A DNA stretch of 64,000 nt, taken from Candidatus Latescibacterota bacterium (lineage in GTDB: Bacteria; Latescibacterota; UBA2968). A program made the translations under genes and the position numbers. The DNA is taken from assembly GCA_965116885.1 (NCBI GenBank), contig OZ220741.1, positions 4,576,001 through 4,640,000 of the forward strand, written 5' to 3'. Shown here in pieces: positions 7,870-64,000 of this stretch. Position 1 is the first letter of the stretch. The number at the start of each line of letters is the position of its first letter. The notes under the pieces are model-generated. The model made no database searches. It was not told where the DNA came from and was given only the letters and a program-made list of their open reading frames with translations.

Positions 7870-9652
7870 CCTTATCTTTGCCAATCTCCATATTCCGAAA
7901 TTGCAAATCGCACAACTCGCGATAAAGCCCATCCCTATCAAACAACGCCTCATGCGTTCCACGCTGCGCGATCTCGCCCTGATCCAATACCAGAATACAA
8001 TCCGCATGTTGTACTGTTGACAACCGATGCGCAATAATAAACGTCGTGCGTCCTGCCATCAACCGTTCCAAAGCCTGCTGCACCTGCGCCTCTGAAGCCG
8101 AATCCAGCGATGAAGTCGCTTCATCCAGCAACAAAATGCGCGCGTCTCTCAACAGAGCACGCGCAATCGCAACCCGCTGCCGCTGTCCCCCACTCAATTT
8201 CACGCCCTTTTCCCCAACCAGCGCGCCGTACCCCTCCGGCAATTCCACTATAAAATCGTGGGCATTCGCATCTCGGGCTGCCTGCTCAACCTCATCATCC
8301 GTCGCATCCAATCGCCCGTATCGGATGTTTTCACCAATGGAAGTACCGAACAAATCCACATCCTGTGATACCAGCGCGATCTGTTCGCGCAGCGATACAA
8401 TCTGCACATCGCGCACATCCACGCCATCCACGCGCACAACCCCAGAGGTCGCATCGTAAAATCTCGGAATCAGATTCATCAGCGTCGTCTTGCCCGCGCC
8501 ACTCGCCCCCACAAGTGCTATGGTTTGCCCAGGCAGGGTCTCAAATGAAACCCCCTTGATTACCGGGCGGTCGGGCTGGTATCCAAACCAAACATCTTCA
8601 AACGCCACTGCACCGCGAACATCTGCAAGTGGAAACGCACCCTCGCCATCGGCAATCTCTGGTCGCGACTCGAGCAATTCAAAAATGTGTTCTGACGCGC
8701 CCACAGCAGAATTTAAGGACGCATAAAGACGCGTAATCCCCATCACAGATCGGGCAATATTCATCGCGTAAAAAATAAACGCCACCAGATCACCCGCCGA
8801 CAAGCGCCCGGCCAGCACCTCTGTGCCCCCATACCAGAAAATCACTACCAGCGCCAGCATAAAAAGAAATGCGATACAAGCTGAAAAAACCGCTTCCATA
8901 ATCACGCGATAGCGCGACGTGCGAAACAAATCTTCGTTTGCCTCGCCATATCGATTCACCTCAAAAACTTCGCGTGCAAACGCCTTGACAACCCGTATAG
9001 CCGACAGGGCTTCTTCGGCAATCGCAGTCGTATCGCCCAAACGATCCTGCACCGTGCGAGACAACTCGCGGATGCGCTGCCCAAAATAGCGCGCCCCAAC
9101 AGCAGCAACCGGCGCAGCGGCAAACACCACCAGGCTCAATCGCCAATTGAGAACAACCATAGCCGCTACAGAACCAATAGTCATAATCCCCGTCATCAAA
9201 ACCTGCGAAATAGCACCCGTCGCGGCATTTCTGATGGCCCCCACATCATTGGTCAGACGCGACATGAGTTCGCCCAACCTGTGATCGGCATAAAAGCGAA
9301 GCCCCAAAAGGTGCAAATGCGCGTAAACCTTCTTTCGCAGATCCGTCACCACGCGCTCACCCACCCAGGAAATCCAGTAATGGCTACCCACATGCAAAAG
9401 CGACTGCAGCACAAACAGCACCAGCATGCCAAGCGCCAGCAAATCCAACTGGTGTCTATCCCCCTGCTCAAACACGGAATCCAACAGCGACCGCAAGCCC
9501 AGCGGAATCATCAGCCACACACCTGAGGAAAACGCGGTAAATACCAGCCCCAGGACGAGCCGCAACAAGTATGGCCGGGCAAAAGCAAAAATGCGCTTCC
9601 ACGCCAGCCACAATGCCACAGGAGAATATGTCTGGTCGTTTTTTTCAGTCAT
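7862..9652 (-). CDS. ABC exporter, fused permease/ATP-binding (MsbA-like)
   Basis: N-terminal TM domain; GASGAGKTT, LSGGQRQR, LLLDEATS, IAHRLST. Confidence 0.95.
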   Translation of the reverse strand: MTEKNDQTYSPVALWLAWKRIFAFARPYLLRLVLGLVFTAFSSGVWLMIPLGLRSLLDSVFEQGDRHQLDLLALGMLVLFVLQSLLHVGSHYWISWVGERVVTDLRKKVYAHLHLLGLRFYADHRLGELMSRLTNDVGAIRNAATGAISQVLMTGIMTIGSVAAMVVLNWRLSLVVFAAAPVAAVGARYFGQRIRELSRTVQDRLGDTTAIAEEALSAIRVVKAFAREVFEVNRYGEANEDLFRTSRYRVIMEAVFSACIAFLFMLALVVIFWYGGTEVLAGRLSAGDLVAFIFYAMNIARSVMGITRLYASLNSAVGASEHIFELLESRPEIADGEGAFPLADVRGAVAFEDVWFGYQPDRPVIKGVSFETLPGQTIALVGASGAGKTTLMNLIPRFYDATSGVVRVDGVDVRDVQIVSLREQIALVSQDVDLFGTSIGENIRYGRLDATDDEVEQAARDANAHDFIVELPEGYGALVGEKGVKLSGGQRQRVAIARALLRDARILLLDEATSSLDSASEAQVQQALERLMAGRTTFIIAHRLSTVQHADCILVLDQGEIAQRGTHEALFDRDGLYRELCDLQFRNMEIGKDKAI

Positions 9653-53092: not shown

Positions 53093-53147
<55 letters not shown>

Positions 53148-53169
<22 letters not shown>

Positions 53170-54716
53170 ATTGCACCGTCTCGCTGAACTTCTGACCTGT
53201 CCGATTCACGACAGGAACGAAATAAAGCGAGAGAAATCTCATCAGGGGTGTAAACGAGATAGTTGATGTGGAGACTTAACAGGTCTTTCTGCTCCTCTGG
53301 TGTGGCTTCATTATATAATTCCTCAAAGGTCGTAAGTTTTTGTTGCATCTGAGCAACGCTTACGGCCTTTTGTTTTTCCTCTGATAGCGTAGCTTCATTT
53401 TCCATCATCTCCTGCTCTATTTCGCTTTTTTGCTCCTCCAGATCAATAATTTTTTGGCTGATAGTTTTTATGCCAATCTTCCTGGAGGCGAGGCTTTCCA
53501 CGAGCACATCCAGTTTCTTCTTAATATCTATAAGAAGTCTCTGATAATTCCTCTGTGTTTGCATCAGGTTTTTCATACGCTCTGAGTTCTTATTTGTCGC
53601 ATCTGCAATAAGCTCTTGGACACGTTTTTGATCTCCGCCGAGTTGAAATAGTCGGTCAATGACCACTCGTTCAAGAGCGGGTGCGGGAACATATTTCATG
53701 GCGCAAGCCCTGTCTCCGCGATGAATCTTGCTCGTGCATTGATAATAACTGTACAGCTTTTTATGACGATTTGTCGAATATACGGGCGTCATGTGAGAAG
53801 AACACCATCCACATTTTGCGAGACCTTTGAGCAAGAAGACGTGCAGGTTCTGTTTTCTGTTTCTATGCGGATCAGACCGTTTGACTTCCATGATCGCTTG
53901 CGCTTTCCGCCACAATTCGATTGGGACAATGGGTTCGTGCTGGCCCTCATAAACCTCACCTTTGAAAATAATTTTCCCGATAAAAAATTGGTTTTGCAGG
54001 ATACGCATGATGCTTGTGTTATTGAACTTCTTGCCCGCACGGACCTGACCTCTCCTGGAGACATACGATTTTGTGCGATAGCCCTTTTCATTTATCACCT
54101 GCGCTGTGGCTCGAAAACTTTGCTCTTTAACGTACGTCTCAAAAATTCTAAGCACCAATTCTCGCTCTACTTCATTCGGTTTCGGGACACCTTTTTCGTC
54201 AGGGTCAACATCATATCCGAGAATCTGTCCACCATTTGTCAGCCCCTTTTCAGCCCTCCACTGCATTTTTTCTCTCGTCCTCTCACTCGTACGCTCCCGC
54301 TCTAATTCTGCCGTCGCCAGAGAAATTGAGAGCGCAAACCGCCCCATAGCGGTTGATGTGTCAAAATTTTCATTGATTGAAATGAATATTGTTTCGTTTT
54401 CTTCCAAAAATTCATGAAGCTGGTAAAAGTCGACGATAGACCGGCTGACGCGATCAATTTTTGTGCATAACACCGCGTCAATCTTTCCCTGCTCAATGTC
54501 TCGAACCATTCGCTTGTATTCAGGGCGGTCTAAATTCTTCCCTGATTTGCCTTCTTCACGATAGATTGCAACGGCTTTCCATTCTTCCTCTGAGGATGTG
54601 GAATCCTTGAGTTCAATATACTTTTGAAGAAGATCAATTTGGGTATCCAGACTGCCGTTCTGAATCTCGGCTTGCAGGTCGGTGGAAACCCGTGCATAAA
54701 GACCACATTTAATCAC
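53148..54716 (-). CDS. Large serine recombinase (resolvase + recombinase + zinc ribbon + coiled coil)
   Basis: LYARVST (catalytic Ser), SGKNLDRP, IDRVSRS, HEPIV, LLKGLAKCGWC...YYQC...C; GTG start 54716 behind AAGGAGG. Confidence 0.95.
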
Positions 54717-54901
54717 ATCTACCTCCTTTGCCCTGTATTGTTTTATTTGGGAATTATATCCGATAATAACCATAGAATAGGTTACGAATATATGTCCTGT
54801 TTATTTATTATAAATATACTTAAAAACAATACTTTATGCAATATCATTATTGTATATAATCTCCTTTTATTTATTCGCGACTCCACTTCCATGAATACTG
54901 C

Positions 54902-55072
54902 TCATGAATGGTTTTCCAACCATCGGAGATAAATAGTTTGGCAGAGATCTCGCAAGTGAGTTGTCCGCTCTTCAGGAGATAATTGGGCATAGGGATTTTG
55001 GAGATTTGGAGGACCTTCATCTATGACCGTAACAGGGATATTGTCCCAGTCGATTTTTTGTCGTTTTGCCAT
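54902..55072 (-). CDS. 56-aa hypothetical protein
   Basis: Below the ORF-track cutoff. MAKRQKIDWDNIPVTVIDEGPPNLQNPYAQLSPEERTTHLRDLCQTIYLRWLENHS with AAAGGTG RBS. Confidence 0.6.
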   Translation of the reverse strand: MAKRQKIDWDNIPVTVIDEGPPNLQNPYAQLSPEERTTHLRDLCQTIYLRWLENHS

Positions 55073-55154
55073 GACCACACCTTTCTTATCAGGTGTGGTT
55101 TTTCCTACTCCCTGATATTGTTATTAGGGTTTTACTGCGGTTATTTTTCGAGTC

Positions 55155-55319
55155 TTATTTGTGTTGCACATCTTGTGTCGGGGCGTCTATTTTGATGCTT
55201 TGTTCTTGTACGACATTGACCAGCTCACCTCGTTGAATGCGCAACGTAATCGAACCCCAAAAAGAGGTGTCAAGATTCTGTAAGAGTTCTGAAATTTTTT
55301 TAATTGTTTGTGTTTTCAT
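55155..55319 (-). CDS. 54-aa YezD/DUF2292-like protein
   Basis: MKTQTIKKISELLQNLDTSFWGSITLRIQRGELVNVVQEQSIKIDAPTQDVQHK; GS(I)TL.I..G.LV.V....SIK pattern; AAGGAG RBS. Confidence 0.65.
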   Translation of the reverse strand: MKTQTIKKISELLQNLDTSFWGSITLRIQRGELVNVVQEQSIKIDAPTQDVQHK

Positions 55320-55462
55320 TTCTCGATCTCCTTCTGCCGGTTTTTATTGGCGTTTAACTTAATTCGCGTTTCTTGATATGTAGCATCCACTCGTGAGGAC
55401 TGACCCTGTCAGCGTCACTTGCCCCAGTACAGGGAATGCAGGGCATCATTGGTCTCGCCTAA

Positions 55463-55671
55463 AAAATAAGCCATATAAAAATAGATTTCTAATGCAATTA
55501 AGGGCAAATAACGTTAAAAAATGAACCGTTGACTCAATCAGACGCATACGGGTAGCATCTATTGTAAAATAAGCCCTACGAAAATAGATTTCTAATGCAA
55601 ATAACAAAAAATATCGTTAAAAAATGAATCATTGGCTCAAATAGACGCAGACGGACGGGTAGTATCTATTG
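55463..55671. repeat. Imperfect ~103-bp tandem duplication
   Basis: Units 55463-55564 and 55566-55671 share AAAATAGATTTCTAATGCAA, CGTTAAAAAATGAA and ACGGGTAG(C/T)ATCTATTG. Confidence 0.85.
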
Positions 55672-55976
55672 ACCCTTTGATCCCGGCATAAATATCCCGT
55701 GCGCCTGCATGGGACAACGCCTGCGATGACATCATCTATGGTGTCGTTTTGAGTACAATACACAAGCCCGTTGATCACAAACGATGAATAGGTATGGAGA
55801 TGGGGTAAAATGAGCCGTTCATCAGACTCATTCATTGACCTGTTTTACACCGATTGATGGGCTTTTTTATTTGATCATTAATGCCAGCGCATGGCAGGCG
55901 TTGGGAGGTTGGCAAGTACGAAGTGAGGCGGAAAAATAAGACTCTACAAGGCAGGATAAAGCCTATACTTTGTATA

Positions 55977-56038
55977 AAAGAAGCGGGCCGTGTTTACGCA
56001 CGGCCCAACATTTCAAATATGTCTTGGCACCAGACATC
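55977..56038 (-). ncRNA. Candidate antisense sRNA, cassette A
   Basis: Extended -10-like TGGTATCGT, hairpin ATGTCT-GGTGCCA-AGACAT, terminator GGGCCGTG-loop-CACGGCCC-GCTTCTTTT. Confidence 0.55.
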
Positions 56039-56090
56039 TATACGATACCAAATTCAGATGTTTGGGGTAAGCAAAAATAGGAGGATTATT

Positions 56091-56335
56091 ATGCCCCCAT
56101 AGAGCGGTATTTTTTTCGGGTATCGGATGGCTGGGGTAGCATCTATCATCCGTCGCCGCAGCGAATGAGTGATGGTGAGCTTGCGCGGGCAATCAGCGCA
56201 CGTATGAATAAAGAGCTGGCACCACTATGGCCTGCTCCAATCTCGGCTATCAGATATGGATGATTGCCATTTACCTCATGTCGCCGAGTTTGTCGCAAGG
56301 CAGAATATGCGCCAAGGATACTGTTGAGCAGATGA
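56091..56335 (+). pseudogene. Disrupted paralog of the 47-aa peptide gene
   Basis: GGAGG-ATG 56091 is out of frame at a C5 run. Frame at 56165 reads MSDGELARAISARMNKELAPL..., then an in-frame TGA (56261), then ...RKAEYAPR. Confidence 0.5.
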
Positions 56336-56390
56336 AAATGGTCGTGCAGAGATTCGAGGGAAAGAGGCTGAGGTATTGCGAGCTGGTGGC

Positions 56391-56419
56391 TTGACAGTAT
56401 AGGCGGAATGTGGTAACGT
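56391..56419 (+). promoter_or_regulatory. Sigma70 promoter for the 47-aa ORF leader
   Basis: TTGACA-17 bp-TAACGT with TG extension. Confidence 0.65.
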
Positions 56420-56438
56420 TGAGGAAAGAAAAAGGCAC

Positions 56439-56498
56439 AAGAAAAGCCCCTCTGGGGAGGGGCTCATCTCAAATAATGACTTGCGGCCAGCAGTCTCT
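56439..56498 (-). ncRNA. Candidate antisense sRNA, cassette B
   Basis: TTGCGA-17 bp-TATATT promoter (56530-56502), hairpin GACT...AGTC, terminator AGCCCCT-loop-AGGGGCT-TTTCTT. Confidence 0.6.
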
Positions 56499-56547
56499 AT
56501 AAATATACAGAACCTCTGACTGGCTCGCAAGCAGAAAGGAGTCTGTC

Positions 56548-56691
56548 ATGACCCCGGGAAAAAGGAAGAAAGATAGCCAGCTTGCCCGTGCTATTGTCAA
56601 GAATATGCGTAAAGAACTGGCACCACTCATCCGAACTGTCAAGCACAGAGAATATGCCAAGAAACAGCCTGCTAACACGCCAAAGCTATAA
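56548..56691 (+). CDS. 47-aa basic peptide
   Basis: MTPGKRKKDSQLARAIVKNMRKELAPLIRTVKHREYAKKQPANTPKL with AAAGGAG RBS; paralogous segment upstream. Confidence 0.65.
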   Translation: MTPGKRKKDSQLARAIVKNMRKELAPLIRTVKHREYAKKQPANTPKL

Positions 56692-56697
56692 AGAGTA

Positions 56698-56976
56698 TTA
56701 CTTTTTTGGCGTAAATCCGTGTTTCTTCAGAATCTTATTGATCTCTGCCTGAGCTTTGGCCTGTTTCAAGATCCTCTCTATCTTTATATCTATCGAAGAT
56801 TTCCGATTTCTAAATATCTTCGATAGCCCCAAAGATAGTATTCCTAAACCTGCGACAATCAGATTTTCACTTACGGTTTTGGACAGAGACCTTTGATTCG
56901 CCTCAATATCTACAAGGGTCTTTATACTCTCCAACCCCAATGGATCATCTTGTTCTGTTAGGTCTTGTTTCGCCAT
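56698..56976 (-). CDS. Hypothetical protein with central hydrophobic segment
   Basis: MAKQDLTEQ... with GGAGG RBS; LIVAGLGILSLGL segment. Confidence 0.6.
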   Translation of the reverse strand: MAKQDLTEQDDPLGLESIKTLVDIEANQRSLSKTVSENLIVAGLGILSLGLSKIFRNRKSSIDIKIERILKQAKAQAEINKILKKHGFTPKK

Positions 56977-57004
56977 GCTATATCCTCCTGATAGCCTGCC
57001 CTTG

Positions 57005-57844
57005 TTACCGCCGACTATCGGCTCCTCTTCTAGCAACATTGAATGAATACGTTTCGTTGTTGCCCTTAGAGATTGATGTAGCATAAATCCCCGCAAAGTT
57101 ATCTGCATATCTCTTATCTTTCTTCAAAAAAGAAAGAGAATAAAAATAGGCTTTGGCATAAGCTTCAGCATAGGTATATCTCTTGCTGTTTGACCAGCGC
57201 GTATCATGGAAATAAGATCTGTACCACCCTTCAGCAAAAACCTCCGCATACTCTTGCGTATAATCCCCTGTTATGGCTACCGCATAGCCATAAGCCTCCA
57301 ATGGGCCCATCCTCATCTTTTCTTGCCCCTCAGCATAAGTTAGTGCAAACTTATCCGTCTTCCCTTCACATTTTGAACTTGCATAGACATCCGCACTTTT
57401 TGGGCTCAAACCATAGAATGTCGCTCCATGGGCGTAATGCTTTGTGTAGTAAAGTATCAAATCCATAGACGCTTTATAGCCCAACTCTTTTATCTTTTTT
57501 ATATTTTCTTCTAGCTTTACTGCCCCTTCAGCGTAAGCTATAGCATAGACATCACTGCGCCCCTGACTCTTTTGCTGAGCATAATTAACTGCATAATGTT
57601 CGCTCCGCCCCCAATCTATATTTTTCGCGTAACTTTTTGCATAGATCGTGTCTTTGCCTGCATCTAACATTTGCAAGTAATGCGTTGCAAAAACATGAGA
57701 CTTCCCTTGTTCTCTCAGGTCATCATAGGTGCTCCCATAAACCTGAGAGTGGTAAAAAACATTGATCTGTGCATGGAAGATAATGAGAAGCGAAAGAACC
57801 GTTATTCCTGCAATAAAACAATATGCTATAATGCGGTTTGACAC
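57005..57844 (-). CDS. Membrane-anchored/exported protein with G.S..YA..YA helical repeats
   Basis: GTG start 57844 behind GGAGG; N-terminal hydrophobic helix; repeats GKSHVFATHY, GRSEHYAVNYA, GRSDVYAIAYA, GLSPKSADVYA, GKTDKFALTYA. Confidence 0.7.
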   Translation of the reverse strand: MSNRIIAYCFIAGITVLSLLIIFHAQINVFYHSQVYGSTYDDLREQGKSHVFATHYLQMLDAGKDTIYAKSYAKNIDWGRSEHYAVNYAQQKSQGRSDVYAIAYAEGAVKLEENIKKIKELGYKASMDLILYYTKHYAHGATFYGLSPKSADVYASSKCEGKTDKFALTYAEGQEKMRMGPLEAYGYAVAITGDYTQEYAEVFAEGWYRSYFHDTRWSNSKRYTYAEAYAKAYFYSLSFLKKDKRYADNFAGIYATSISKGNNETYSFNVARRGADSRR

Positions 57845-58071
57845 GGGACACCTCCCTGGTGAGAGAAGCCGCCGCACCCGTAGAGCATTTGACACAAAGC
57901 ATGTTCTTATATACATTTGCGTCCTCATTTTTATGCTATGGTGGATGCGACGGCTAAATTGTGACGCTACGTATTCGCCTTCTGCTGGGGGTCCCTGCAC
58001 GGATCCTCAGCTTTTTTTATCTATGTGATGCTCTGCATTTTCAGGCATAATTATTATGAGAGGAGTTTGGC

Positions 58072-58590: not shown

Positions 58591-58673
58591 TAACCACAGA
58601 TTGATATGTGTAAAAGAAAATTATGGTGCTAAACCTTCGGCACCTTTGTCTATAATCCCCATAAAAATGGAAC

Positions 58674-60322: not shown

Positions 60323-60497
60323 CACAAACCTCTTTCTCTCGTTTTTATTTGCAGGCTTCCTATTGCTTTTAACCCGAAATATAAATGGGTTACGCACCAT
60401 GCACAAACCATTTATTCAACTCAGCTTCTCGCCTCCAGAGCCTCCAAGTTGCTGATTTGCTTTCCCTGTCAACGATAATCCATATTTGGTATCGTAT

Positions 60498-60560
60498 AGG
60501 TGCTTGGTGCCAAGGTATTTTGTTTGTGTTGGGCTGTGTTTGCGCACGGCCCTCTCTTTT
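60498..60560 (+). ncRNA. Candidate antisense sRNA, cassette C (homolog of cassette A)
   Basis: Same ATTTGGTATCGTATAG, hairpin TGCTT-GGTGCCA-AGGTA, terminator GGGCTGTG-loop-CACGGCCC-TCTCTTTT; antisense to the hicBA leader. Confidence 0.55.
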
Positions 60561-60564
60561 GCCT

Positions 60565-61443
60565 TTATTTTCTATATTGTAAATAGTCCTCCTCTGCGGC
60601 ACGAATTGCCTCATCCCAGGAACTGTGAGTTCTGCCGATACTGGTCCCAATACTTTCTGCTGGCTCACCCGGCCCACGTGGTCCGTCATTTATATCGGAG
60701 AACGATTCCGTTGTCTCTTTGTAGTACAAGCTATAACTGTCGTCGGGTCCTGATCTTTTGTGATGGTGAATGTAATAGTATCCACCCTCTATGTAGCATA
60801 CCCTAAAACATCCATTGAATATTTCGGAAAAAACTAGCTTAATCTCTGTCTGGACTTCCGCTTTTCCTCCTCCTGAGAAAACTCCACACTTACTATCTTT
60901 CTCTGGAATGCCAAATTTTTTCCGTAAGTCCTGAATCTTCTCATCATGCTCTTTTAGGGCTGATAATATTTGTTTCCATACACCGTCATCTCTGTCCGGT
61001 AATTCATCCGGATCTTGTTGCTGCAAAACAGCTTCTATATCCGCTCTTTGTTTTTCTATATAAAGACTTACACCATCTCCTGCTGGAGCAACATCCCACC
61101 CCCAACTATACTTTAATAGTTCTTGTAGGTCTATATCATGCTTTTTTAGTGCATAAAGCATAAGTGCAGTGCCAGTGCATTTGGGATAGTCTGAACTTGA
61201 TTGGATTCTCCAGAGATCCTCGCTGACATCTGGCCCAAAGAGGATACCTTCGCTAATATGATTTTTCTCTAAAGCATCAATCGCTATGCTGTGGGCTTTC
61301 AAAATCGCAAGTATATCAGAAACCTTTGGTAATGTTTCTGCGTATGCAAAGGCGGAAGGATGATCTTTTCTTAGATTCACTTCTAAACCCGCAGATTTAG
61401 ATACTACAGACTGTCCCAAGCCCAACCACTCATATATGAACAT
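60565..61443 (-). CDS. Hypothetical protein with three L.ALK.H...I..L repeats
   Basis: 292 aa; AGGAGGAG RBS; directly abuts the upstream ORF. Confidence 0.7.
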   Translation of the reverse strand: MFIYEWLGLGQSVVSKSAGLEVNLRKDHPSAFAYAETLPKVSDILAILKAHSIAIDALEKNHISEGILFGPDVSEDLWRIQSSSDYPKCTGTALMLYALKKHDIDLQELLKYSWGWDVAPAGDGVSLYIEKQRADIEAVLQQQDPDELPDRDDGVWKQILSALKEHDEKIQDLRKKFGIPEKDSKCGVFSGGGKAEVQTEIKLVFSEIFNGCFRVCYIEGGYYYIHHHKRSGPDDSYSLYYKETTESFSDINDGPRGPGEPAESIGTSIGRTHSSWDEAIRAAEEDYLQYRK

Positions 61444-62608: not shown

Positions 62609-64000
62609 ATGGGTGCGTTGAATGTTGGTAACAGGACGTTGTTTACGTGTGATAATTTGTCTGTGATGCAGGGTTTGAATAGTGAGAGTATAGACTTGAT
62701 ATATCTTGATCCGCCGTTTAACTCGAAGCGTAATTATGCAGCTCCTATTGGTTCACAAGCTGCTGGCGCGGCGTTTAAGGATACGTGGAATTTGGATGAT
62801 ATAAAACGTGAGTGGATAGAGGATATAGAGGCAGATAATAAGTCAACATGGGCGTCAATAGTATCTGCGGGTCATATAAGCGGTGAAAGCACTCAGGCAT
62901 ATTTGACATATATGGCTATTCGGTTGATAGAGATGCGTCGTATTTTGAAACCGACAGGCAGTATATATCTCCATTGTGATCCAACGGCAAGTCACTATCT
63001 GAAACTTTTGATGGATGCCATTTTTGGACAGCAAAATTTTCGATCAGAAATTACGTGGCATCGTTCTGCGGAAAATTTGTCAAACAAAAAATGGCGACGG
63101 GCTTTTGAAACGTTATTTTATTATTCAAAAGACAAATCGTGGACTTGGAATCAAATTTTTGAGCCTCTCTCTGAACAGGTATTGACGAGAGATTACCGCT
63201 TCGAGGATGAGCGGGGACGCTACAAGACGACAGCTTGCACAAACAATGCACATCGCCCGAATATGTTTTATGAGTTCAATGGCAACACTCGACAATGGCG
63301 ATATTCCAAAGAAACCATGATGAGATATGACGAGGAAGGCTTGTTGGTCTATAACCAGGACGGTATCCCTCGTCGTAAACTTTATCTTTCGGATGTTCAG
63401 GGGACAAAACTGACTAATGTATGGTCGGATATAAAAGTCTTAGCTAGTAATGCAAAAGAGAAAACGGGGTATCCCACGCAGAAGCCCCTCGCTCTTTTAG
63501 AGCGCATTATTGAAGCGTCGTCAAATCCGGGCGATGTGGTTCTCGATCCCTTCTGTGGATGTGCTACGACGTGTATTGCCGCGGAGAAACTGGAGCGACA
63601 ATGGATAGGAATAGATATAGAGCCGGAGGCGCGTAATCTTGTTATTCAGCGATTGGAGAAAGAGATTGATATAGACGCGCTATTTAAGGCGGGTGGTGGT
63701 AGTTTGCCTGATGTGGTACATAGGAAGCGACCGCCGAGGCGTACAGAGGAAGATGCGCCTCGGCGGTCGCGTAATATCAAGCAGAAGTTGTATAAGTTAC
63801 AGGGAGGTCGTTGTGCTGCGCCGTGTGGTGAGGATGGTCAGGGTCGGGAATTTCCGATAGATATATTTGAGGTTGATCATATCCGTGCGCGGAATAAGGG
63901 TGGTCCGGATATTGATGAGAATTTGCAGTTATTGTGTTCGACTTGTAATCGTAGCAAAGGGAATCGGACAATGCAGTATTTATTAGATAAATTAGGTCAA
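62609..64000 (+). CDS. Beta-class N6-adenine/N4-cytosine DNA methyltransferase fused to C-terminal HNH endonuclease (3' end just off the window)
   Basis: Not in the ORF track (no stop in window). Manual translation: DLIYLDPPFNS, YLHCD, YPTQKP, VLDPFCGCATT, then RCAAPC...EVDHIRARNKGG..IDENLQLLCSTCNRSKG. Confidence 0.93.
   Translation, partial: MGALNVGNRTLFTCDNLSVMQGLNSESIDLIYLDPPFNSKRNYAAPIGSQAAGAAFKDTWNLDDIKREWIEDIEADNKSTWASIVSAGHISGESTQAYLTYMAIRLIEMRRILKPTGSIYLHCDPTASHYLKLLMDAIFGQQNFRSEITWHRSAENLSNKKWRRAFETLFYYSKDKSWTWNQIFEPLSEQVLTRDYRFEDERGRYKTTACTNNAHRPNMFYEFNGNTRQWRYSKETMMRYDEEGLLVYNQDGIPRRKLYLSDVQGTKLTNVWSDIKVLASNAKEKTGYPTQKPLALLERIIEASSNPGDVVLDPFCGCATTCIAAEKLERQWIGIDIEPEARNLVIQRLEKEIDIDALFKAGGGSLPDVVHRKRPPRRTEEDAPRRSRNIKQKLYKLQGGRCAAPCGEDGQGREFPIDIFEVDHIRARNKGGPDIDENLQLLCSTCNRSKGNRTMQYLLDKLGQ

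Follow-up and report, generated by a model that had tools for sequence, protein, structure and literature searches.

Predicted antisense-RNA modules precede exchangeable small ORFs on IS1595-family elements and an integrative island of a Latescibacterota bacterium

Does an antisense small RNA (sRNA) gene lying in the leader of a short open reading frame (ORF) mark a toxin-antitoxin pair, or can it gate cargo of another kind? The question is raised by a 64,000-nt stretch of the genome of a Candidatus Latescibacterota bacterium (contig OZ220741.1, positions 4,576,001 to 4,640,000; this whole stretch is called the window), in which a first-pass annotation had described two tandem cassettes of promoter, leader, antisense sRNA and small peptide at 55960-56691 and had proposed them as a new type I toxin-antitoxin family. 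From comparison with related genomes, we consider it somewhat probable that the window carries three copies (A, B and C) of a module in which a cis-antisense sRNA gates the passenger ORFs of IS1595-family insertion sequences (IS) and of an integrative island at tRNA-Met. In this unstudied phylum, the architecture is real and conserved in the genus as far as sequence can tell; its link to IS elements and its swappable cargo were unexpected.

In the proposed module, a sense promoter would be followed by leader hairpin 1, leader hairpin 2 with an antisense promoter, the ribosome-binding site (RBS) and a small cargo ORF. Read on the opposite strand, leader hairpin 1 would serve as an intrinsic terminator, and together with the antisense promoter it would define an sRNA of ~55-80 nt, in which an AU-rich linker would join a 5' stem-loop, GC-rich in its loop, to the terminator. 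Such an sRNA would be perfectly complementary to approximately nt 10-70 of the leader and would end short of the RBS. Building on sequence features, their conservation and their mosaic structure, we predict that the sRNA is transcribed and that its pairing with the leader, by a duplex initiated at the loop, would lower cargo expression; a cargo phenotype, if any, is likewise a prediction. Repression would probably act through duplex-dependent mRNA decay, perhaps together with interference between the facing promoters, and probably not through occlusion of the RBS. The modules would be passenger or leader units of IS1595-family elements and of the island, with an exchangeable cargo ORF. Recombination with an IS1595 transposase gene has wrecked A, and the start codon of C is gone.

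Cassette B appears from its sequence to be the only intact one of the three in the window. On the plus strand, its sense promoter-like site TTGACA (56391-56396)-17-TAACGT (56414-56419) can be read as the first-pass annotation read it, but TAACGT agrees with the consensus at 3/6 positions and the strict scan omits the site. Its -35 element overlaps the TGA stop codon (56392-56394) of an IS1595 transposase gene. The antisense promoter TTGCGA-17-TATATT (56530-56502, minus strand), which had also been claimed, is listed by the consensus scan; it is embedded in leader hairpin 2, and its hexamers and spacing are identical in a sister genome (G019 L006; G and L numbers denote genomes and loci). The scan likewise found the minus-strand terminators at 56465-56444 in B and 56007-55984 in A. 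The predicted sRNA B, ~60 nt at 56436-56495 on the minus strand, ends in the former and folds with -26.7 kcal/mol (z -3.3). Folding of the sense RNA bore out the leader hairpin noticed earlier, here leader hairpin 2 (56480-56531, plus strand, arms CTTGCGGCCAG/CTGGCTCGCAAG), of which the 5' arm is the predicted sRNA target and the 3' arm carries the antisense -35; counterparts different in sequence occur in G014, G015 and G019. The RBS AAGGAG (56536-56541) and the ATG at 56548 open an intact ORF of 47 amino acids (aa) on the plus strand (56548-56691), confirmed as basic with an isoelectric point (pI) of 11.2.

The cassette layout was then compared with that of relatives, through a DNA search over 41 related genomes followed by inspection of the loci and the addition of ten further regions. 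A strict scan for the layout of hairpin, antisense promoter and RBS covered 13 loci, drawn from 9 genomes within the genus. The main terminator was antisense-oriented in 11/13 module regions, with a weak sense terminator in 1/13, and an antisense promoter stood between terminator and RBS in 4/13; two more loci read TTGACA-17-TAAGTT by eye. The clearest example of the module, judged on these signals, is the unit at G015 L021, with the best-consensus sRNA promoter (TTGACC-17-TATAAT, 11/12), the conserved GUCUGGUGCCAAGGC stem-loop, a terminator, a facing sense promoter TTGACA-17-TAATAT and a 61-aa Cys-rich ORF, in 4 identical copies. The surrounding repeat (L021/L033) is at least 2.5 kb long, is likewise present in 4 copies and comprises an IS1-family transposase (PF03400), a 210-aa ORF, the 61-aa ORF and the sRNA unit.

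Other relatives combined the same parts differently. G019 L006 shares the 3' half of the B leader, including TTGCGA-17-TATATT, while the terminator hairpin differs in sequence; by eye it has its own sense promoter TTGACT-17-CAATAT, its cargo is an unrelated acidic 68-aa ORF, and an IS terminal motif lies 28 nt 3' of that ORF. G014 L004 represents the same island, with 83-86% identity to window 54782-56075 and 91% for module A, and here the ORF is swapped exactly at the RBS, a 74-aa ORF with a hydrophobic N-terminus standing in place of the window sequence. In G003 L005, an A-like leader directly follows the IS1595 stop and precedes a 73-aa ORF. Further module sequence types occur in G002, G015 L008 and G020.

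We built a covariance model, R1, from five predicted sRNAs, in whose consensus structure 6/15 pairs show compensatory changes. The cis-antisense geometry that had been claimed for the two cassettes was found again in sister species with compensatory changes, and once with a near-consensus sRNA promoter, the TTGACC-17-TATAAT of G015. The model search suggested by the first-pass annotation recovered A (window 55972-56040), B and C in their own genome, plus one weak match at 4649471-4649541, and added G015 beyond the training set; sRNAs A and B are training sequences, so the match of B to its own model is not independent and that of A has the same origin. The Rfam scan suggested alongside it brought no family: across the whole window only 2 tRNAs reached the gathering threshold, and the best local match below it, ctRNA_p42d on the B terminator hairpin, reached 17.4 bits (E 2.1), where the gathering score is 50. 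An exact 21-mer of the B leader was found across genome contigs only in the G019 record and in one probable chance match in an actinobacterium.

The link to IS1595 elements was established through G008 L007, which encodes a full-length transposase ORF of 338 aa (313 aa from the conserved ATG) that matches PF12762 (4.4e-39), PF12760 (2.5e-6) and NF033547 (4e-58), that is, DDE_Tnp_IS1595 with an N-terminal zinc ribbon. Window 56212-56394 holds only fragments of an IS1595 transposase by tblastn, and its family was assigned via this full-length copy. As an element, L007 is complete: inverted repeats of 26 nt (88% complementary; GGGGATTATGTA…) and a duplication of 8 bp (AAGGATAT) flank the transposase, a cassette of promoter, leader and 59-aa ORF, and a further ORF. 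Because the inverted repeats and the duplication enclose the cassette, the small-ORF cassette is cargo of the IS in L007. Around the window copy of IS1595, only a similar terminal motif was found, at 58649-58660.

The transposase 3' end and the module are joined in a recurrent manner. The sequence GCTTGACA contains the transposase stop in the window, G002 L010, G015 L008, G008 L007 and G019 L163, and a TAnnnT hexamer lies 17 nt further on in 4/5 of these copies; the -10 elements of the stop-overlapping promoters read TAACGT in G002 L010, TAAAAT in G015 L008 (11/12) and TACTGT in G008 L007. For annotation this is a caution that a transposase stop codon can create a textbook promoter. A strong antisense-oriented terminator (stem at least 7) follows 50-110 nt past the stop in 6/13 distinct transposase 3' ends, and a sense-oriented one within 280 nt in 0/13; the terminator of G019 L006 lies ~330 nt past the transposase stop. 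Of the transposase 5' leaders themselves, 6/7 carry an antisense terminator, ~100-130 nt before the ATG, and 2/7 have a strict antisense promoter, one of them belonging to a fragment in the genome under study (TTGCCA-17-TATATT). These units suggest that antisense gating is habitual in these IS1595 elements. Cassettes A-C are not antisense to a transposase 5' untranslated region (UTR) or start and face small passenger ORFs. The transposase-leader units, seen among L007, L008, L010, L161 and L163, are RNA-OUT-like and precede IS1595 transposase genes of this genus.

Cassette A, described earlier as having the same layout as B, shares with it the terminator, the leader and the RBS, whereas its antisense promoter is weak and its start leads nowhere. 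The predicted sRNA A (55976-56036, minus strand) consists of the 5' stem-loop GUCUGGUGCCAAGAC, an AU-rich linker and the terminator hairpin at 56007-55984 with its U-run, and folds with -21.7 kcal/mol (z -2.6); window 55900-56075 is 91% identical to G014. The weak promoter-like site, TTACCC-17-TATCGT (56042-56070, minus strand), was found by reading, and the strict scan does not list it; the same -10, TATCGT, recurs behind a perfect TTGACA in G002 L010. The RBS-proximal ATG (56091-56102, plus strand) opens MPP-stop only, the ORF at 55881-56102 ending ...IIMPP. The paralogous ORF that had been called disrupted indeed survives in part, as a remnant paralogue of the 47-aa gene (…DGELARAISARMNKELAPL, 56165-56227, plus strand; tblastn E 0.007), but it is out of frame with the cassette A start and fused to a remnant of an IS1595-family transposase gene (56212-56394, plus strand). 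This second remnant corresponds to approximately residues 75-102 and 275-313 of a 313-aa relative and stops at TGA 56392-56394; it has an internal deletion of ~540 bp, relatives holding that much extra between window 56276 and 56278. In a three-way alignment, cassette A tracks B up to AAAGAnCTGGCACCA and then follows the transposase gene from the same ~15-nt microhomology. Because A switches from B-like to transposase sequence at this microhomology, we regard it as a recombination chimera, and its ORF is, on this sequence reading, a dead one made of a peptide gene and a decayed transposase gene. Annotators may take from it that a paralogous peptide beside an IS can be a recombination chimera.

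We also considered that the similarity between the A and B peptides is a mere out-of-frame IS fragment. This holds for the 3' half of cassette A and was ruled out for B, as a homologue of the B peptide (P0002, below) keeps the whole peptide from MTP to PKL. The genome has no intact copy of this transposase, just the 56212-56394 fragment and an N-terminal one. The latter (residues 1-84, 73% identity) is at L001 1480-1931, that is, 4641480-4641931 of this genome (G000); the similarity to residues 1-84 spans G000 4641680-4641931 and breaks at the same CTGGCACCA site as the cassette A fragment. Its leader holds the antisense promoter TTGCCA-17-TATATT mentioned above and an antisense terminator. 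Upstream of cassette A, a 103-bp tandem repeat (55463-55654; 1.9 copies, 83% matches) contains, in each unit, TTGACT-18-TAGCAT, which resembles a promoter, together with the motif ATAGATTTCTAATGCAA. L001 has a related motif, ATAGATTTCTAGTGCAA, at ~9412-9430, and the 13-mer GGGTAGCATCTAT recurs within cassette A at 56136-56148. These repeats and kindred motifs may serve the island as operators or promoters.

The claim of two cassettes had to be extended, as a third sRNA copy, C, lies at 60497-60570 on the plus strand, inverted relative to A and B (terminator 60531-60552; ~60484-60560 by BLAST against the same genome). It is convergent with a 292-aa ORF (60565-61443, minus strand). Alignment identified its decayed cargo (60395-60480, minus strand) as a remnant of the 68-aa ORF type of G019 that has lost the ATG and the first codons.

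If the modules do not define a peptide family, what do they precede? The 11 cargo ORFs (47-74 aa) fall into 9 groups without detectable mutual similarity, the only related pairs being G015 L008 with L021 and G002 L010 with G020 L161. A hydrophobic segment was present in 1/11, the N-terminal helix of the 74-aa cargo in G014 (maximum 19-residue Kyte-Doolittle hydropathy 2.57); the corresponding maximum of the 47-aa ORF is 0.12, and its AlphaFold2 (AF2) model is a single amphipathic basic helix over residues 3-38 (predicted local distance difference test, pLDDT, 77). No cargo or cassette matched a family in Pfam, NCBIfam, PADLOC, PHROGs or Rfam.

The 47-aa protein was searched for in several collections. 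Among 1.84 billion representatives it has a single homologue, P0002 (56 aa, E 5.9e-5, 62-64% identity), which is conserved from MTP to PK(K)L and is on record from three short ENA contigs only. Since P0002 conserves the peptide, the sequence evidence supports the 47-aa ORF as a real gene. The ORF track had missed it, as the first-pass annotation observed, yet identical protein entries from NCBI and ENA sources show that the ORF has been called publicly. A word-based protein search returned the peptide itself only. An alignment of the two sequences gave 63 pattern matches on genome contigs, 74 on viral and 279 on metagenome contigs, with 0 confirmed in each, and a translated search of 21 genus genomes reached E < 0.1 only in the peptide's own genome; there was no usable ESM Atlas match and no blastn match in the phage collection. 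The homology check thus yielded one relative, while the peptide is not conserved with the module across the genus. An inverted repeat (ACGCCAAA…TTTTGGCGT, 56676-56716) spans the stops of the convergent 47-aa ORF (…NTPKL) and 136-aa ORF (…FTPKK), and may be a shared or bidirectional 3' end.

These cargoes bear most directly on the type I toxin-antitoxin explanation, in which growth-inhibiting peptides would be held in check by a labile sRNA antitoxin and the pair would stabilise the IS or the island. In hok/sok, ldr/rdl and symE/symR, a constitutive cis-antisense RNA of ~60 nt is made from a promoter inside the 5' region of its target, and in ldr/rdl and tisB/istR the pairing site lies in the leader upstream of the RBS. 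Like the type I loci hok/sok, ldr/rdl and symE/symR, the modules have an antisense promoter inside the leader, pairing upstream of the RBS and a location on mobile DNA, so the cis-antisense geometry fits. The explanation would also account for A and C, which keep the sRNA hairpin intact while the ORF is broken, as expected if prior loss of the antitoxin were lethal, and it can point to the hydrophobic helix of the G014 cargo. Unlike those systems, however, the modules precede cargoes that are mutually unrelated, mostly hydrophilic (no hydrophobic segment in 10/11) and without a match to any toxin or antitoxin family in the five collections searched; the module can be exchanged from one ORF to another, and a transposase-type gene, which is not a toxin, has the same antisense design in front of it. 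Measured against what defines a type I locus, a complementary RNA with its own promoter and terminator is present at the level of sequence signals, neither a hydrophobic peptide nor a known soluble toxin family marks the cargoes as a set, and joint inheritance of a toxin family with the RNA is contradicted by module types that precede 9 unrelated ORF groups. With a single homologue of the 47-aa peptide as a further point against it, we regard a true toxin-antitoxin pair as possible but unlikely. The geometry resembles that of type I systems, and a toxin function is unsupported by these sequences; the proposal of a new family defined by its peptide gave way to that of passenger and leader modules of IS1595 elements and the island.

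Several observations weigh against the gate as well. Between 55300 and 57200, terminator-like sites are in excess (6 vs 1.7 ± 1.4 in shuffles; 5/6 on the minus strand), whereas promoter-like sites are at chance level (3 vs 3.1 ± 1.8), and the scan used consensus hexamers that may not be the Latescibacterota consensus. Cassettes A and C have poor -35 elements. G003 L005 and G008 L007 are without a strict antisense terminator (2/13). In 31 family genomes, strong matches of R1 outside its training set came from G015 alone, as four identical copies; the other 18 places (E 0.005-0.09) resemble plain terminators. The 17-nt loop motif was located in 9 viral and 112 metagenome stretches, none a convincing member; among 89 loop-motif loci (L038-L126), the best by R1, L079 (26.7 bits) and L110, resemble coding sequence without a module. 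Because these exact-motif scans yielded no convincing member, either the module family is a narrow one or the search criteria were too stringent. RNA runs on record covering 55700-56900 number none, with two DNA/contig runs only. Finally, an RBS-sequestration switch was rejected, as sequestering the sRNA target in silico had no consistent effect on RBS accessibility (0.61 to 0.52, 0.50 to 0.43, 0.25 to 0.23, 0.42 to 0.49 and 0.53 to 0.41). These shifts are slight and inconsistent, which leaves the repression step without a structural explanation; since the sRNA also misses the RBS, duplex-triggered decay, promoter interference or both are favoured. A sigma-54 reading of TTGGCAC was dismissed by eye, there being no GC at -12.

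Because the number of promoter-like sites is at chance, promoter hexamers count only by their positional conservation in relatives, and on this turns a second alternative, that no discrete sRNA exists. The hairpins would then be orientation-specific insulators against antisense transcription from outside, with the antisense promoters as hexamers arisen by chance; even so, the 47-aa ORF could be genuine and simply have a structured leader of the ordinary kind. The chance-level count and the poor -35 elements suit this explanation, and the convergent 136-aa ORF (56698-57108, minus strand) could use the 56465-56444 terminator in B. The position of the antisense -35 and -10 is nevertheless kept amid differing sequence (TTGCGA/TATATT, TTGACC/TATAAT, TTGACA/TATCGT, TTGACA/TAAGTT), most relatives have no antisense-strand gene upstream of the terminator, and the 5' stem-loop motif CUGGUGCCAAG of the sRNA is common to A, G014 and G015 (UUGGUGCCAAG in C) in front of different cargo. 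We consider insulators improbable.

Least probable of all is that the sRNAs serve transposition control, modulating the transposase or pairing with its leader antisense RNA while the small ORFs are incidental: cassettes that directly follow the transposase stop (6/13 copies), antisense units in the transposase leaders and the precedent of ISPpu9, whose sRNAs Asr9 and Ssr9 lie either side of tnp (PMC8450116), speak for it, but duplexes between sRNA and transposase 5' region are no better than shuffles (fraction as good 0.05, 0.10 and 0.52), A (in the window and in G014) and C lie inside the integrative island and not beside a transposase, and the G015 L021 module goes with an IS1-family transposase.

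The gate for passenger ORFs, our preferred explanation, can be placed among known IS-borne RNAs. Like IS10 RNA-OUT/RNA-IN and ISPpu9 Asr9/Ssr9, it would be an IS-borne stem-loop and terminator antisense RNA complementary to a 5' UTR, a likeness that fits the IS1595 transposase leaders. In contrast to both, A-C face passenger ORFs, the sRNA leaves the start codon uncovered, and the elements are IS1595 and not IS4 or IS110. With CopA/CopT of R1 and the ctRNA families of Rfam, the modules share a two-stem-loop antisense RNA and a leader target well upstream of the start codon; unlike plasmid countertranscripts, they have no replication gene downstream, and the ctRNA_p42d match is far below threshold and limited to the terminator hairpin. 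Passenger-carrying IS1595 elements, as described in ISfinder, have additional genes in the interval from the transposase to the right end. L007 resembles them in its zinc-ribbon DDE_Tnp_IS1595 transposase, inverted repeats, 8-bp duplication and passenger genes. What would set the present elements apart is the small-ORF slot with its predicted antisense-RNA gate and a promoter overlapping the transposase stop. The literature searched, which was available in part, describes no IS1595 element with antisense-gated passenger ORFs.

If the sRNAs are expressed, they would constitute a regulatory RNA family in a candidate phylum that matches no Rfam family, and would mean that insertion sequences can carry RNA-gated small-protein cargo exchanged between copies, with a bearing on IS persistence and on the origin of orphan small proteins. 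More tentatively, and with clear doubt, we suggest that IS1595 elements and the island bear a standardised antisense-RNA slot, its promoter built onto the stop codon of the transposase, into which unrelated small ORFs are swapped at the RBS, as type-I-like addiction modules or host-manipulating cargo. Were this true, it would add a class of IS passenger system not described before and a means by which small proteins are exchanged as cassettes.

All three cassettes lie within a stretch of lower GC content (0.39-0.48 vs ~0.54) that starts at tRNA-Met (53093-53169, plus strand) and an adjoining large serine recombinase (53148-54773, minus strand), which form the left island border. Further on, the island contains a methylase-HNH fusion, an HTH_36 protein, RadC, a Rad52-like protein and many family-less ORFs; no virion genes were seen among the family matches of its proteins. 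From these contents, it looks like an integrative element and not a complete prophage. A 13-nt exact repeat of part of tRNA-Met (53131-53143) occurs ~19 kb to the right, at the coordinate equivalent to window 72216-72228 (E 0.08), and may mark the island's second attachment site. Further copies of the IS terminal motif (GGGGATTAT…) are scattered over the island in right-end orientation, at 58649-58660, L001 47-58 and L001 10158-10169, which suggests several rounds of IS insertion and decay.

Two neighbouring ORFs deserve mention. A 331-aa ORF (57005-58000, minus strand) has no family match and contains many short YA-containing repeats (…YAKSYAKN…YAVNYAQQ…YAIAYAEG…). Since this ORF and the 136-aa ORF at 56698-57108 overlap, the start of one of the two is probably wrong. 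The methylase-HNH ORF (62609-64000, plus strand) fuses an N6/N4 DNA methylase to an HNH endonuclease and runs past the window end.

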